Positions 7,203 to 14,136 of a stretch of 64,000 nt of DNA are shown in pieces. Made by a program: the position numbers and the translations under genes. Origin of the DNA: an uncultured Planctomycetota bacterium (GTDB taxonomy: Bacteria; Planctomycetota; Planctomycetia; Isosphaerales; Isosphaeraceae); contig CAWJTV010000049.1 of assembly GCA_963845755.1 (NCBI GenBank), positions 32,001 to 96,000 of the forward strand. Reading direction: 5' to 3'. Every line of letters begins with the position of its first letter. Position 1 is the first letter of the stretch. Below the pieces are notes generated by a model. That model worked only from the letters and a program-made list of their open reading frames with translations. It did not search any database and had not been told where the DNA came from.

Positions 7203-7386
7203 CCTCCTCGACCCTCCTGCTCGAGAGTGCCGTGATCCCGGACTCCTCCCTATACTCCCCGCGGGCGAGGATCTCAATACACTTTGTGGTGCGAGATCTG
7301 GCGAAAATCAAGCGATTCTGCGAGGGTGTACCCGAATCGCCAGCCGTGCCCCGACCCGCCTCGTCCACCCCTGAGATGTGATTCTT

Positions 7387-8985
7387 ATGCTGATCGCCTA
7401 CGTCAGCGACGAGCGTTATGTCGCACTGGCCGATGTCCTTCTGGAGTTCGAGGGGGAATCCGGCTCGTTCGAGGCCAGCTCACGAGCCACGGGTTCGGTG
7501 CATGTCGACCTGGCGCCGGGCCGCTACAAGGTCACACTCCAGAAGCCTGGTTTCGGGTCCAAAAGCGTGCACATGGACGTCGTGCCGGGGCAGCCGCCTT
7601 ATCAGTTCCGACTCCTGACGGATGGCCTGCTCGGCTACGCCTGGCCCAAGTGGGTCAAGGTGGGTGCGAAGTCCGAGTTTCGGGTCCACTCCGTCGAGCC
7701 GTATCAGCTCAGCCTCTGGCGGTATGGAATCCAGAAGGAGTTCATCCGCAGCCTCGGATGGTTCGACGAACATGGACCCAGGGCCACGATGCAGATCACG
7801 CCCGACGGCGACTACACTCAGACCGGCGTCTTCTGGAACAAGTTCGGCTACGCCAACCCGCATTTGCACCAGTACGTCGAGGCGCCCTCCCGCTCGGGGT
7901 TGTACTATTTCCGTGCGCGGACGGCCCGGGGAGCCGAATTCAGCTTTCCCTGGATCGTTGCGCCGGAACAGCCGACGTCGCCCGTCGCGGTGCTGGCATC
8001 GAACATCACCTGGAATGCCTACAACAACTTCGGCGGCCGGAGCAACTACATCAATCCGGACCGGTTGCCGACGACTCCCACGGTCAACGCCCGGCTCGAG
8101 CTGAAGCGATACACCGATCCGGACAGCATCACGTACGACACCGAGGACTATGCCCCACTCTCCTTCGACCGCCCCGAACCGATCAATCACATCGATGCGA
8201 ACACCGAGATCACCGACCCGATCGAGGGCCGCGCCGCGTGTCATCTCGCGCCGGCCGAGTGGCGGTTCCTTGGCTGGCTCGAACGCGAGCGCCTGGCCTA
8301 CGACTACTTCGCCGAGACGCAACTCCACGACGGGACGCTCGACCTCGACGCCTACAAGGTCTTGATCCTCTCGACGCATCCCGAATACTGGTCGCGGGAG
8401 ATGTATTTCCGTGTCAGGTCGTGGATCAACGAGCGAGGCGGCCGGCTCATGTACCTGGGAGGTAACGGACTGAACTGCGAGGCGGAGTTCGTCGACTCGA
8501 GCGCCGTGATCTACCGCAACGGCGACGGCCGCGCCCTGAAGCGTGGAGGCTACGAGAGCCGGTTCCACATGCGCGTCGAATCGGAGGCCAACCTGCTGGG
8601 CGTGGTGTTCACCGACACCGGGATCATGACCGGTGCGCCGTATCGCGCGATCGATTCCGCGCACTGGGCTTTCGCCGGCACGAGCCTCGAGAACGGCAAC
8701 CTTTTCGGCCAGTCGAGCTTGCATATGCGGTGTCCCGGCGGCGCATCCGGCCACGAGACCGACAAGGTCTCGCCCAGCTCGCCGACGAACGTCGTGCGAT
8801 TGGCCAAGGGGACCAATATCGACGAAGGCGGCGCCGAACTGGCCTACTACGAGACGCCTTCCGGCGGCGCGGTCTTCTCCGTCGGCTCGATCGCCTGGCC
8901 CAGCGCGATCCTCGTCGACGATAATGTCTCCCGGATGACGGCCAATGTGTTGAGGCAATTCCTGAGCGCTCTGGTCTCTGGCTGA
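7387..8985 (+). CDS. N,N-dimethylformamidase beta-subunit family (DUF6605-like) protein with N-terminal carboxypeptidase-regulatory-like domain
   Basis: 'TWNAYNNFGGRSNY', 'LSFDRP', 'HPEYWSREM', 'LMYLGGN', 'GHETD', 'VFSVGSIAW' motifs. Confidence 0.8.
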   Translation: MLIAYVSDERYVALADVLLEFEGESGSFEASSRATGSVHVDLAPGRYKVTLQKPGFGSKSVHMDVVPGQPPYQFRLLTDGLLGYAWPKWVKVGAKSEFRVHSVEPYQLSLWRYGIQKEFIRSLGWFDEHGPRATMQITPDGDYTQTGVFWNKFGYANPHLHQYVEAPSRSGLYYFRARTARGAEFSFPWIVAPEQPTSPVAVLASNITWNAYNNFGGRSNYINPDRLPTTPTVNARLELKRYTDPDSITYDTEDYAPLSFDRPEPINHIDANTEITDPIEGRAACHLAPAEWRFLGWLERERLAYDYFAETQLHDGTLDLDAYKVLILSTHPEYWSREMYFRVRSWINERGGRLMYLGGNGLNCEAEFVDSSAVIYRNGDGRALKRGGYESRFHMRVESEANLLGVVFTDTGIMTGAPYRAIDSAHWAFAGTSLENGNLFGQSSLHMRCPGGASGHETDKVSPSSPTNVVRLAKGTNIDEGGAELAYYETPSGGAVFSVGSIAWPSAILVDDNVSRMTANVLRQFLSALVSG

Positions 8986-9111
8986 TAGCGTCGCTCTGCG
9001 AATTCCCCGGAAGACTCGGGATGCTGACTTGGGTAGAATTGATCAACATCCTGCCTGACGTCAAGCGGTAGTCGAGAAACCGACCATGCTTCCGAAAAGA
9101 GTCATTCGTCT

Positions 9112-9600
9112 ATGAAACCAGTTCGGCGCCTCAACCTCGATGCGTTCGAAGGAGATAGTAAAGTCGGCTCTGAAACGAATCGCGAGTATTTCCGGCGCGA
9201 TCAACGTGATGGCATCAGCCCTCCGGATTTATCCAAGCAGTGCACGTTCGCCGAGCATATCGTGCATGCACGGGGCAAACGAACCCGATACACAAGTGTC
9301 TCGCTTGATCTGACGAGGATCAAAGACTTCGGGGACACCGACTTTCGTCTGGAACGGCAAATCCTCCTTCAGGATCGGCACGAATTGGTCGAGCATGAGA
9401 TGTTACTCGGCGAACTTCGAAGAGTGATCCGCGAAGGTGAGAAGGCAGAGCGTCAGCGAGCGATCCAGGCGATGAGATACGCAACAAGGCGCAAAGAGGG
9501 TCTGGTGAACTGGTCCTTCGACATCACGCGAGTCGCGCCGAAGAACCTCTTGACCTGGACCAAGGCTCGAATTCAATCCTACTTCAGACGGCTAAAATGA
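9112..9600 (+). CDS. Hypothetical protein with R-S-E ADP-ribosyltransferase-like motifs
   Basis: YFRRD (aa 26-30), EHIVH (48-52), YTSVS (60-64), RKEGLV (127-132); stop overlaps the next start (ATGA). Confidence 0.55.
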   Translation: MKPVRRLNLDAFEGDSKVGSETNREYFRRDQRDGISPPDLSKQCTFAEHIVHARGKRTRYTSVSLDLTRIKDFGDTDFRLERQILLQDRHELVEHEMLLGELRRVIREGEKAERQRAIQAMRYATRRKEGLVNWSFDITRVAPKNLLTWTKARIQSYFRRLK

Positions 9601-10412
9601 TGGATGAGCTATTCTCTTGCCGCAATTGCATTCACAACGCCGGGCAGAGTCTCCTGATCGGCCAGGGCTCAGGATTCTGCTTGCAGCACGAATCCGTCGT
9701 TTGGGAACCCGATCGAACGACCTGCAAATATCTTCACCGCAAGGATCTGCCTTACTTCGTCGTGGAGGAAGGGATTCGCGAACACGCTGCCGAGTTCGCC
9801 GGATTCCCGTTTCTGGTTTCGCTTCATGAGAAGAAATCGATCGAGCGGATTCCCTACAGCGAGAAGCTTCGATGGGAAAAAAAGTCCTTCGATCCAGTCG
9901 TTCATTCGCTGGCCCAGTATTACAAGGTCCAACCGAGGTGGATCTTGATTTCGGCTCTTTCCGGAGGCGTGGACGGCCGGCGTTCACTCACTCACAGCTC
10001 TCTTGTTCGACATTATATGTATCAGTGTAATACCTGGAAGAGTTCGTATCGCCTAGTACTCGGCCTCTTGGAGGAGATCGACATCAAGCCCCAATTCGAG
10101 CCCCGAGAGATCGTCCGTTCGGAGGGCACTTCCGACGCGGAGGCGGCCGAGGAAGCAACTTGGGATGTGGTCTTCGCTCGCTTGAATGCGGTTCAAGAAT
10201 ATGGCTGGCACGCGGGTCTCGAAACCCTCATGTGGGCCAGCGACGCACTCAACGGCAGCCTGGCTGAGTTGAACTGGCCAGGTCTGCAAGCCGAGTTGGC
10301 GACACATCGCGCGTCGTGGATCAAGCTGATCATCTCGAGTGCGAAGAAGCACCACGAATTCTTCCCGACGCCGGAACCCGGTTCAGGGAGGGCCTCCGAT
10401 GTTGAAGAATGA
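9597..10412 (+). CDS. Hypothetical protein with N-terminal Cys/His cluster (putative Zn-binding)
   Basis: CRNCIHN...FCLQH...TCKYLH; 271-aa soluble ORF coupled to the upstream gene. Confidence 0.7.
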   Translation: MMDELFSCRNCIHNAGQSLLIGQGSGFCLQHESVVWEPDRTTCKYLHRKDLPYFVVEEGIREHAAEFAGFPFLVSLHEKKSIERIPYSEKLRWEKKSFDPVVHSLAQYYKVQPRWILISALSGGVDGRRSLTHSSLVRHYMYQCNTWKSSYRLVLGLLEEIDIKPQFEPREIVRSEGTSDAEAAEEATWDVVFARLNAVQEYGWHAGLETLMWASDALNGSLAELNWPGLQAELATHRASWIKLIISSAKKHHEFFPTPEPGSGRASDVEE

Positions 10413-10464
10413 GTGCCGACGACGCCGATCGCTTTGATTTTCGAAAACTCGTATGAGAACCTCC

Positions 10465-11584
10465 ATGCGGATTACCCGAGTTGAAGCCATCCCCGTCCGC
10501 GTACCACTCAAGGCGGGGATGACCACGAAGACAGCCCACGGCGACCATCACACGTCCGACTACGTGATCGTCCGGGTCCACACCGACGAGGGGATCGTCG
10601 GGTTGGGCGAGGCGACCGTCTCGGCTCTCTGGAGTGGCGAGACAAGCCGGAGCTGTGTCGCCGCCATCGATGACCTGATCGGCCCGGCGCCGTTCGGCTC
10701 CGATCCGACCGGGATTACGGCGATCCGGAAACAGATGGATTACCTCATCAAGCTCAATCCTTTCACGAAGTCGGCCATCGAGATGGCGCTCTGGGACATC
10801 GCGGGCAAGTCCCTGAATGTCCCGGTCTACCAGCTCCTGGGTGGCAAGGTCCGGGACGTCATCCCGACCAAGATGATGATCGGGGCCTTCGACCTGCCTC
10901 GCGTCCGTTCGCTGGCCGAACAATTCCTGAACTGGGGCATCCGCTGCCTCAAGGTCAAGGTCGGGATCGACGTGGCGGGCGATGTCGCGCGGGTTAGGGC
11001 CGTGCGCGACCTGGCCGGCCCCGATATCCCGATCACCATCGATGCGAATTGCGGCTGGAACGTCACCACGGCACGACTCGCGCTGGAACAACTCCGCCCG
11101 TTCCGCTTGCTTGTGGCCGAACAGCCAATCGGGACGGGAGATACCGAGGCGATGGCCAATCTGCGGACGGCCTGCGGCATCCCGATCATGGCCGACGAGA
11201 GCGTGTTCACGCTTGCCGACGCCTGGAATGTGCTCCGCGCACAAGCGGCCGACGTGATCAGCGTTTATCCTGGCAAGAACGGTGGGATTGTTGCATCGAT
11301 CGAGATCGCCCAGGTGGCCCAGGCGGCGGGGATCTCCTGCCACGTCGGCAGTAACCTGGAATTGGGCATCGGCTCGGCCGCGATGCTGCATCTGGCCTGT
11401 GCCGTGCCGAACATCGATAGCGCGACGTACCCTGCCGACATCCTCGGCCCGCATTATCACGAGGCCGATCTGCTCACCGAGCCGCTGGCACTGAACCCGG
11501 ACGGAGCCGCGCGTGCCGGATGGCCCCGGACTCGGAGTCGCGCTGGACGAGGATCAGCTCAATCGGTTCCGAGTCGATCGTTGA
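10465..11584 (+). CDS. Mandelate racemase/muconate-lactonizing enzyme (enolase superfamily); frameshift near 11510
   Basis: 'KSAIEMALWDIAGKSLNVPVYQLLGG', KVKVG, IDAN, EQP, MADES; true C-terminus VPDGPGLGVALDEDQLNRFRVDR* is in a shifted frame ending 11584. Confidence 0.88.
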
Positions 11585-11651
11585 GGGATCGATCGAGCCC
11601 AGCGGTCTTGTGGTACCGTCCGACCTCATCACTCCGAGGGAGACCTCCACG

Positions 11652-12445
11652 ATGCAGCCCGCCGACCCCACCCCGGTCCCGCCACCAGGCTCGATCGAGT
11701 CGCCGTTGGTCACCCCCGGAGCCTCTCTCAAGGTCCCTGTGGGCCGCGGTCGGCTCTGGTCCTGGCGCTGGGAGCGGGACTGGTGGCCGGTCTCCTTTCC
11801 TGGCTCGGTGGTGAGGAGTGCCTCGAACTGATCAAGCCACCGCGCCACTCGGTGAACTCGAAGGGGCTGACTTTGAGGGTCACCAGTCGCCGCGAGGAAG
11901 CGGCCGTCGTCGCCAAGAACGCGGGGCTGGCGTTCCTTCTCCTCGGTGCCGCGCTCGGCGGCGCACTGGGAGCGGCCGGCGGACTGTCCCGCCGGTCCCG
12001 CCGGGCGGCCGTGCAGGCGGCCTGGATTGGCGGGGTGATGGGCGTGGTCGCGGCAGCTGGGATGTCCTTGGCTCTCTTGCCCGCGTACAACGCCTACCAG
12101 CGACGCTATCCGGATGAGGCATCGCGCGACCTGGTCTTGCCCCTGCTTGTCCACGCCGGTATCTGGTCGGCTCTGGGTGCCGCGGGCGGCCTGGCGCTCG
12201 GCGTGGGCCTGGGCGAGCGCGCTCGGATCCCCCGGATCGCGCTGGGCGGATTCCTCGGCGCGGCTGTTGGCGCCGCAGCCTACGAGGTCATCGGTGCTTT
12301 CTTTCCCGCGGCCAGGACCGCGCAGTTCGTATCCGCGACCTGGGAGACCCGCCTGCTCGCCCGCCTCGTCGTCACGCTCCTCGCCTCCGCCGGCGCGGCG
12401 ATAGGTGTGTCCTCACCTTACGCACAGCCGGATTCCACGGGCTGA
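11652..12445 (+). CDS. Gly/Ala-rich planctomycete membrane protein; frameshift near 11760
   Basis: MQPADPTP...GRLWSW joins ALGAGLVAGLLSWLGGE; several Gly-rich TM segments; TGA stop lies within the IS target duplication. Confidence 0.65.
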
Positions 12446-12446
12446 G

Positions 12447-14136
12447 TTCGACTTTTGCCGATTGTTTGGCTTCCGCGGGGCTGCGCCTCCTTGGTGCAAT
12501 AGAGGGTAGGGATCTCCTCTCACATCGCACACAAGGAGGCCGCCATGACTATTGTAACACCTCGACGCCGGAAGCGGATCTCTCGAAAAGACCTCCGCGT
12601 CTTGCGACGGCGACAAGCCCAAAAGGCGCGGGCCGCTCGACACCTACTCGACCGCAATCACGACCAACTCCCCGCGCCGGTCCGCGCCCTCTTCGACCCC
12701 CTGCAACCGGCCTTTCGCCGCACCGTCTACCGCCGGTGGGTTCTGCTGGCGCTGGCCGCCATCCTCACGGTGGGCGGACGCACTCTCTCCAATCTGCTCC
12801 GATGCCTCGGCGGCTTGGCCCCCGGTCATTCGAGTAGTTATCACCGCATCTTCTCCCAGCGCCGCTGGTCCTCCCGCACCCTGGCGCGGCGATACATCGC
12901 CGCCGTGCTGGCGCGATTCGCACCCCAGGGCCTCGTGCCCGTGGTCGGCGACGATACCGTCACCGAACATCCCGGGCCCCGGGTCTACGGCAAAGGGTGT
13001 CACCGCGATCCCGTCCGTTCCACTCACTCGTTCACCGCCTTCCGCTGGGGACACAAGTGGGTCGTCCTGGCCCTGCTGGTCCACTTGCCGTTTTCCCGCC
13101 GGCCCTGGGCTTTGCCGTTGATGGTGTCGTTGTATCGGCCCGAGGACAAGGCGACCGACGGGGTTACCAAGCGGTGCGCACAAGACCCCGGCGGATTTGC
13201 TGGCACAGATGCTCCGCATCCTGATCCGCTGGTTCCCGGAGCGAACGTGGCTCGCCACGGCCGACGGCGATTACGCGACCCACGAACTGGCCGAATTGGC
13301 CACGGCCAACCCCAAGCGGCTGACGTTCGTCAGCAAGTTCTACCCCAACGCCAATCTGTTCGAGCCGTCGCCGCCGGTCTCGGGCAAGCGGCCGGCCCAT
13401 CGTCCCCGCAAGAAGGGGAAGGCACTGCCCAAGCCGGCCCAGGTGGTGCGCGACTGCCGTCAGCCCTCGGTGCTGAAGGTCGCTTGGTACGGAGGGGGAC
13501 GCCGCCGTGTGGAAGTAGTCAGTGGCCGAGGTCACTGGTATCGCGGTGGTCGGCCCTTGGTGCCGGTGCTCTGGGTCTTCGTCCGCGACCGGACTGGGAC
13601 GCACCGGGACGAGTATTTCTTCACGACCGACCTGACCATGAGCCCCCAGGCGGTGATCGAGACCTACACCGGTCGCTGGTCGATCGAGACGACCTTTCAA
13701 GAAGTCCGTTCCTACCTCGGCCTGGAGACGACGCGGGGCTGGAGTCGGCGGACCGTCTTGCGGGCGGCACCGTGCCTGTTTTGCCTGTATACCGTGGTGG
13801 CGTGGTTGTACACGGAGATGCCCAGACGGTACACACGCGCGGGTGGTGGATTGGCCGGGAAAGTGCGACGTGACGTTCTCGGATGCCATCACGGCGGTAC
13901 GGCGCTGGCTGTGGGTGGAATGGGTTTTTGCAATCCCTGGTCATCGCGAAGCCTTTTCAAAACTCGGTCGTCCTTTGAGGCAGATCCTGCTCAATGGACT
14001 GGCCCCGGCCGCCTGAGACGGGCCGCCGGGCCACGTTAAGGAAGCCCGCGCGGGGCGAATTGCGGTCGTGCGGCGCCCCCGCTCGATCGCGGTGTGCGCC
14101 GCGGGCGTCGAGGTGTTAGAATCGGCCAAAGTCGAA
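12447..14136 (+). mobile_element. IS701-like/DDE_5 insertion sequence
   Basis: Terminal IRs TTCGACTTTTGCCGATT (from 12447) and AATCGGCCAAAGTCGAA (to 14136), 16/17 match; flanked by 5-bp direct repeat CTGAG (12442-12446, 14137-14141). Confidence 0.85.
12545..14016 (+). CDS. DDE transposase (IS701-like); frameshifts near 13175 and 13845
   Basis: 'VGDDTVTEHPG...HRDPVRS', 'ADGDYA', 'YTGRWSIETTFQEVRSYLGLE'; C-terminus VTFSDAITAVRRWLW...GLAPAA* ends 14016. Confidence 0.85.

Follow-up and report, generated by a model that had tools for sequence, protein, structure and literature searches.

Results

Organization of the ORF1-ORF2 cassette

The window, by which we mean the whole 64,000-nucleotide stretch of planctomycete DNA that was analyzed, carries two adjoining genes on its forward strand. 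ORF1 (positions 9112-9600) codes for a protein of 162 aa with a pI of 10.2, which is predicted to take the R-S-E (cholera/pertussis-clade) ART fold and to act as a toxin, and ORF2 (9597-10412) codes for its predicted antitoxin, a protein of 271 aa with a pI of 5.9 in which an N-terminal Cys site is followed by a helical body. The two frames are joined by an ATGA stop/start overlap at 9597-9600 of the same strand, as the initial annotation had described, and the motifs quoted there for ORF1 (YFRRD, EHIVH, YTSVS, FG, and YATRRKEGLV, the last containing E129) and for ORF2 (CRNCIHN-x13-CLQH-x11-CKYLH) are all found in the sequence. Neither protein had been assigned to a recognized family, and our searches agreed with this, as no match worth noting came from Pfam, NCBIfam, PHROGs, or PADLOC. 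To judge from their homologs (285 among 315 candidates for ORF1 and 456 among 1,749 for ORF2), both are real, conserved genes, and each is present as a single copy in the source genome.

The pair is contained in an inserted low-GC segment at 8986-10464, to which no strand is assigned. The cassette had been described as more AT-rich than its flanks, and its GC content is indeed 0.551, compared with 0.635 in one flanking gene and 0.644 in the other; equally low values occur in only 0.6% of 10,941 genome windows of 1.3 kb. Both flanking genes lie on the forward strand and outside the system. The one on the left (7378-8985) resembles the N,N-dimethylformamidase beta gene (PF20254, DMFA2_C), in agreement with the initial annotation, while the one on the right (10465-11814), which had been called an enolase, is a member of the mandelate racemase/muconate lactonizing enzyme (MR/MLE) family of the enolase superfamily according to its Pfam matches (PF02746 and PF13378), so that an enolase itself was rejected. 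The alignment of this MR/MLE gene with its relatives stops at about residue 348, and the ORF continues to 453 aa, which is probably due to a frameshift near the 3' end or to an assembly error. Farther downstream, two ORFs overlap in different frames at 12545-14039 of the window, and they look like a split DDE transposase. Terminal repeats were not found around the 8986-10464 segment, nor were a sigma70-like promoter and a terminator found at the cassette.

The insertion site was compared at 30 loci where relatives carry the left-flank gene, taken from 44 matches. The two flanking genes are directly adjacent, 16-184 nt apart, at 10 of the 30 loci; the partner gene (the ORF2 homolog) is present at six; an insert similar in size to the cassette, but consisting of a transporter-like ORF (MFS by appearance), lies between the same two genes at three (L053, L054, and L056); and neither the right-flank gene nor the partner exists within 1.5 kb at the remaining 11. 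The six partner-carrying loci comprise two intact pairs, one with a nonsense mutation in the ART gene, one with an internal deletion in it, and two without the ART gene. The GC content of the cassette is lower than that of its flanks at 38 of the 41 loci with enough flanking sequence, which were not de-duplicated. The pair is a sporadically inserted low-GC cassette at an otherwise empty site.

Predicted fold of ORF1

A typical homolog of ORF1 consists of about 148 aa and starts near residue 15 of ORF1, and the longer form beginning with the ATG near 9112 is common to two close relatives. The AF2 model of ORF1 has a mean pLDDT of 86.9, with low confidence at residues 1-20, and contains six strands in the order of the ART fold: R28 is in strand 1 (residues 27-31), S62 and S64 are in strand 2 (60-64), and E129 opens strand 5 (129-133). 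Such a distribution of the triad over strands 1, 2, and 5 is the ART arrangement (PMC13617354). When the model was compared with 48,161 chains using VIA, ranks 1-25 were all occupied by ART-fold chains. The best match was TreX (Z 7.1, rmsd 2.9, 95 residues aligned), and it was accompanied by EcPltA (Z 6.9), pertussis S1 (6.6), Scabin (6.3), KptA (5.6), and CARDS (5.4), while DarT and ParT gave Z-scores of 3.5 or less; two other chains among the 25 are Tse2 and AvrPphF. The top rows of Foldseek belong to the same ART families, all with E > 0.07 and none at E 0.001, and the ESM Atlas neighbors are Pertussis_S1, Scabin-like, NarE, and DUF7587 at 0.93-0.95. Because the Z-scores are middling, none of them reaching 8, and Foldseek gives no row at E 0.001, the support for the fold lies in the agreement of these lists, which bears out the ART-like assignment of the initial annotation. 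A cholera/pertussis-type ART fold is, therefore, predicted for ORF1 from its model. Five profiles and a single fragment were also searched against PDB sequences and gave no match at E 0.001. The two best ESM Atlas neighbors, at a score of 0.96, are Pseudomonadota clusters with 97 and 63 members of 143 aa, a length equal to that of the distant-clade ART described below, and they may represent a larger branch of the ORF1 family.

The nearest fold match, TreX, is an Rhs tip, and the order of the genes, toxin before immunity, is that of polymorphic toxins; in addition, an Ntox17/SUKH pair exists about 2 kb away from the cassette at one locus (L004). These observations would suit an orphan tip of the Rhs/CdiA type with its immunity gene, kept for recombination onto a secreted carrier. 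We consider this quite improbable, however, because a search of 1.84 billion proteins without length limit, which yielded 82 representatives of ORF1 at 50% clustering, found no carrier fusion among these hits: the one long hit, of 934 aa, consists of a low-complexity repeat, and that of 273 aa is a C-terminal ART fragment joined to unrelated sequence. Moreover, the 311 and 145 neighboring ORFs scanned include no Rhs, VgrG, or CdiA family, in line with the earlier remark that the pair has no Rhs or secretion carrier, and the ART gene has its own start codon at most loci.

Conserved residues and the missing loop

Conservation was counted in an alignment of ORF1 with the best 120 of its 285 homologs. 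R28 and S62 are each conserved in 120 of the 121 sequences, and E129 in 118. Across 15 diverse sequences from two clades that are only about 20% identical, R28, D30, H49, and E129 are invariant and S62 and S64 are each conserved in 14, so the R-S-E triad pointed out in the initial annotation holds in both clades. H49, which follows strand 1, is taken as the counterpart of the His of pertussis and cholera toxins.

The "R-x-E" loop proposed in the same annotation fared differently. R127 is conserved in 119 of the 121 near-clade sequences, but family-wide the position varies, being N, A, W, H, or C in 10 of the 15 diverse sequences, and R-x-E was rejected as a family signature. What position 127 never contains, among the R, N, A, W, H, and C observed, is Q or E. 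The ARTT motif, phi-x-x-Q/E-x-E, is accordingly not found in the ORF1 family; since helix 111-127 of the model also runs directly into E129 with no turn-turn loop between them, the ARTT loop is absent. The absence of Q/E and of the turn-turn loop is the distinctive feature of the family. The phi-x-x-Q/E-x-E loop selects Arg, Asn, or guanine N2 (PMC11281641), and CARP-1 is noted as an exception to the loop (PMC12945103). The family is basic, with a median pI of 9.4 and 97% of its members above 8. In the ART of one locus (L009:10037-10531), a stretch of about 14 residues within the helical hairpin is duplicated in tandem, with no shift or break of the reading frame.

Features of ORF2

In the model of ORF2 (pLDDT 92.8), which is confident, a small Cys region at the N-terminus precedes a helical body spanning about residues 100-250. 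The N-terminal region has the arrangement C8-x2-C11-x16-C28-x14-C43 followed by RKDL, and C8, C11, C28, and C43 are conserved in all of 30 N-terminal sequences from both clades, as are N10, Q17, G26, T42, and R48-K49-D50. The Cys/His-type metal site suggested in the initial annotation was, therefore, retained in part: its four Cys residues stand, whereas H31, which is replaced by W, F, or Y in six of the 30 sequences, was rejected as a conserved ligand. On the basis of this conservation, ORF2 likely carries a four-Cys metal site for either Zn or an Fe-S cluster. The Cys spacing resembles that of HiPIP, a [4Fe-4S] protein. A profile of the 30 N-terminal sequences found no HiPIP among PDB sequences or in Pfam, and the resemblance is not supported. 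Among the Myxococcota, five loci (L019 and L022-L025) form a divergent sub-branch in which the partner has W at the position of H31 and ends earlier, and C144 is missing from the three partners that were aligned.

Foldseek found no match to the fold of ORF2 at E 0.001 in the PDB and viral libraries. VIA returned generic helical repeats only (best Z 6.7), with the N-terminal part barely covered, and the ESM Atlas neighbors are all small Cys-rich proteins scoring no higher than 0.77. A search for longer, fused forms of the family found none, which is weak evidence. At the sequence level, the partner is unlike DarG, NADAR, and Xre proteins, as the initial annotation had it, with no macrodomain, NADAR, ARH, or Xre match in Pfam. 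Type II antitoxins commonly autoregulate; no HTH or RHH Pfam match was found in ORF2, and no convincing operator palindrome was found upstream of the cassette. The partner family is acidic, with a median pI of 5.4 and a median net charge of -12, and is thus complementary in charge to the ART family, the median pI of which is 9.4.

Pairing, distribution, and rarity of the cassette

A profile of the ART detected 27 loci in GTDB. Their record titles correspond to planctomycetes, gammaproteobacteria, Desulfobacterota, Chlorobium, Myxococcota, and Acidobacteriota. The partner is situated downstream of the ART gene at 25 of the 27 loci, the other two having a transposase instead and a contig edge, respectively, and in all of the 52 intact clusters defined in the next section the start codon of the partner is no more than about 6 nt away from the stop codon of the ART gene. 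Mean identity is 53% in each of the two families, and the distances within them correlate with each other (Mantel rho 0.62, 0 of 999 permutations, n = 51 loci). When plasmids were searched, a distant version of the cassette was detected in Ca. Methylospira mobilis, beside HicAB, ParDE, and an integrase. Its partner matches ORF2 with a probability of 96.9 and an E value of 1.6e-10, and the match of its ART to ORF1 is weak (probability 25, E 7.7e-4), although the motifs line up. The pair is kept at all five loci of this distant clade, that is, the plasmid locus and four more, and the conserved pairing inquired into at the outset was thus observed in both clades. One Methylumidiphilus genome (G536; loci L013 and L154) holds both the near and the distant clades and would offer a natural test of cross-neutralization. 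At another locus (L099:363-5339), two copies of the cassette, separated by 3.7 kb, flank a DUF1016_N/SNase gene.

The cassette is rare. The ART was found in eight of 120 genomes of the family, and the partner in none of 400 genomes sampled from the phylum, for each of which six candidates were scored, while the distant clade was found in two of 401 genomes of a gammaproteobacterial sample and in three of 251 in another sample. No copy was found in viral contigs (IMG/VR), in phage records searched with partner queries, or in E. coli genomes searched at the DNA level with the distant clade.

One-sided gene loss

The 128 loci with a hit were grouped into 86 sequence clusters, three of which were counted in two classes. 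Both genes are intact in 52 clusters. An intact partner exists beside a broken ART gene in 17 clusters and beside an absent one in three, giving 20 cases in total; both are damaged in five (both broken in three, and the ART broken and the partner missing in two); and 12 are unclassifiable at contig ends. An intact ART with a damaged partner was seen in none of the 86. The loci collected by partner queries, which are the best 80 of 115 hits, are biased toward intact partners. The set collected by ART queries is free from that bias, and its 26 of 27 loci comprise 19 intact pairs, five ART-only breaks, no partner-only break, and two double ones; the split of five to zero has a P of about 0.006 under length-proportional breakage. 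Near-identical loci with and without a deletion in the ART gene were found (L089 versus L082, L016 versus L020, and L027/L097 versus L093/L094), and the distant clade provides one more ART nonsense mutation beside an intact partner. Five of the ART breaks are frameshifts that are possibly assembly errors (L011, L017, L068, L113, and L147), but such errors would be expected more often in the longer partner, and several of the breaks, in-frame stops or deletions, have near-identical counterparts in which the gene is intact. A possible counter-case is L150, where the partner is frameshifted and the ART gene is cut by the contig end.

Such one-sided decay matches what would be expected for a toxin, ORF1, and an antitoxin, ORF2, and it strengthens the case for ORF1 as the toxic member of the pair. 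It also bears on the reverse polarity, in which ORF2 would be the toxic protein or effector and ORF1 would inactivate it by ADP-ribosylation in a type VII-like manner. The conserved polar residues of ORF2 could form an active site, but loss of the ART alone would then be lethal and is nonetheless what the 20 cases, and the one in the distant clade, display, which makes the reversed roles highly improbable.

One-sided loss would equally follow if the partner were useful by itself, as in a non-toxic pair for regulation or sensing where ORF2 is the main actor, a metal/redox sensor or an effector, and ORF1 is a dispensable accessory ART that modifies ORF2 or a pathway protein. Survival of the partner alone in 20 cases, its larger number of homologs (456 versus 285), conservation as strong as that of the ART, and the many invariant polar residues of ORF2 would all be accommodated by such a pair. 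A regulatory role is, however, difficult to reconcile with the patchy distribution (eight of 120 family genomes for the ART and zero of 400 in the phylum sample), with the GC deficit at 38 of 41 loci that were not de-duplicated, with the lack of a third gene or pathway common to unrelated loci, and with the failure to observe an intact ART without its partner. We regard it as improbable, though less so than the reversed roles.

Genomic neighborhood

Families related to toxin-antitoxin systems, defense, or mobile elements exist within about 5 kb of the cassette at eight of the 27 GTDB loci (L004, L007, L018, L020, L021, L022, L025, and L027) and within about 4 kb at 10 of the 20 metagenome loci scanned (L082, L092, L099, L107, L114, L115, L129, L137, L144, and L147), both of which are raw counts with no baseline. 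At L115, a partner without the ART is located between HicB and Phd-ParE. No third gene common to unrelated loci was found in the GTDB and scanned metagenome neighborhoods, and PADLOC gave no match to the cassette. These neighborhoods fit an accessory conflict module, but they fall short of demonstrating an anti-phage function, and an anti-phage role of the cassette is unsupported beyond these counts.

Discussion

The most probable explanation of the cassette is that ORF1 is an NAD+-using toxin acting on the cell that makes it and ORF2 its neutralizer, together composing a toxin-antitoxin pair, because the order and coupling of the genes are fixed, the two families diverge together, the pair is inserted at an empty site, the R, S, E, and H residues are conserved, the loss is one-sided, and the ART fold is predicted. 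ORF1 would bind NAD+ in the cleft containing R28, S62-S64, and E129 and would transfer ADP-ribose. A nucleic acid as its target has a chance close to even, and is favored because ORF1 is basic and lacks the Q/E-x-E loop involved in the recognition of Arg, Asn, and guanine N2; a protein target is less likely, and mere hydrolysis of NAD+ slightly less likely again. ORF2 might neutralize ORF1 in several ways, among which direct binding is fairly likely, on analogy with TriX, which occludes TreX (PMC11606950). Removal of ADP-ribose is doubtful, and any other way of neutralization still more so. If ORF2 were lost or inactivated, perhaps by way of its four-Cys metal site, the toxin would be released, and the outcome would be addiction of the host to the cassette and perhaps abortive anti-phage defense, for which the chance appears somewhat short of even. 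That all the components apply at once, so that the cassette encodes a stand-alone intracellular anti-phage ART that modifies nucleic acids without the loop and is released by a new-fold antitoxin through a four-Cys metal/Fe-S sensor, seems unlikely.

If the toxin-antitoxin reading is true, the pair would represent a new toxin-antitoxin family, in which an R-S-E enzyme from the pertussis/cholera clade acts in the cytoplasm and is held by an unclassified four-cysteine protein. Its ADP-ribose acceptor chemistry might be new because the usual specificity loop is missing, ORF2 might provide a new antitoxin fold, and the pertussis/cholera-clade fold would be placed in a non-pathogen setting, in a pair that is small and self-contained. 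The weight of these points is limited by the rarity of the cassette, which was met in none of the 400 phylum genomes and two of the 401 in the gammaproteobacterial sample. No description of the gene pair was found in the literature, including PMC9503650, PMC12945103, PMC13069673, and PMC13617354, although the supplements of the surveys PMC9503650 and PMC3482391 could list it. The ORF1-ORF2 pair is likely a new toxin-antitoxin system.

Among the known systems, the R-S-E (ARTC) toxins, namely TreX from Xenorhabdus bovienii, pertussis S1, EcPltA, Scabin/ScARP, and CARDS, resemble ORF1 in predicted fold, strand order, and the R-S-E triad, and TreX is blocked by a downstream-encoded protein that occludes its active site (PMC11606950). 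They are, however, secreted or borne by Rhs proteins, while ORF1 is free-standing with no carrier found; ORF1 lacks the phi-x-x-Q/E-x-E loop, a helix leading straight into E129; and their sequences are only 6-19% identical to that of ORF1.

The known ART-type toxin-antitoxin systems considered here, DarTG, CmdTAC, and RES/ParST, belong to other ART clades. DarTG, which is described as anti-phage, shares with the cassette the order in which the ART toxin gene comes first and the neutralizing gene second, but DarT gives a Z-score of 3.5 or less to ORF1, and Pfam detects neither a macrodomain nor a NADAR or ARH family in ORF2; by sequence the cassette falls outside DarTG, since searches of Pfam, NCBIfam, and PADLOC matched neither of its proteins. 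CmdTAC also contains an intracellular ART toxin within a toxin-antitoxin module (PMC11618068), but the triad of CmdT is H-Y-[EDQ] and the toxin depends on a SecB-like chaperone, whereas the cassette has R-S-E and no third gene. RES-Xre, ParST, and MbcTA combine, like the cassette, a small ART-fold toxin with a protein antitoxin, and ParST in particular consists of a small NAD+-using ART-fold toxin held by its protein antitoxin (PMC8120803). They differ in that no RES or Xre Pfam match exists here, the Z-scores are 3.2 or less, and the antitoxin of the cassette is encoded downstream as a 271-aa four-Cys/helical protein. The cassette resembles DarTG, CmdTAC, and ParST in outline, while it departs from each of them in the sequence features that define them.
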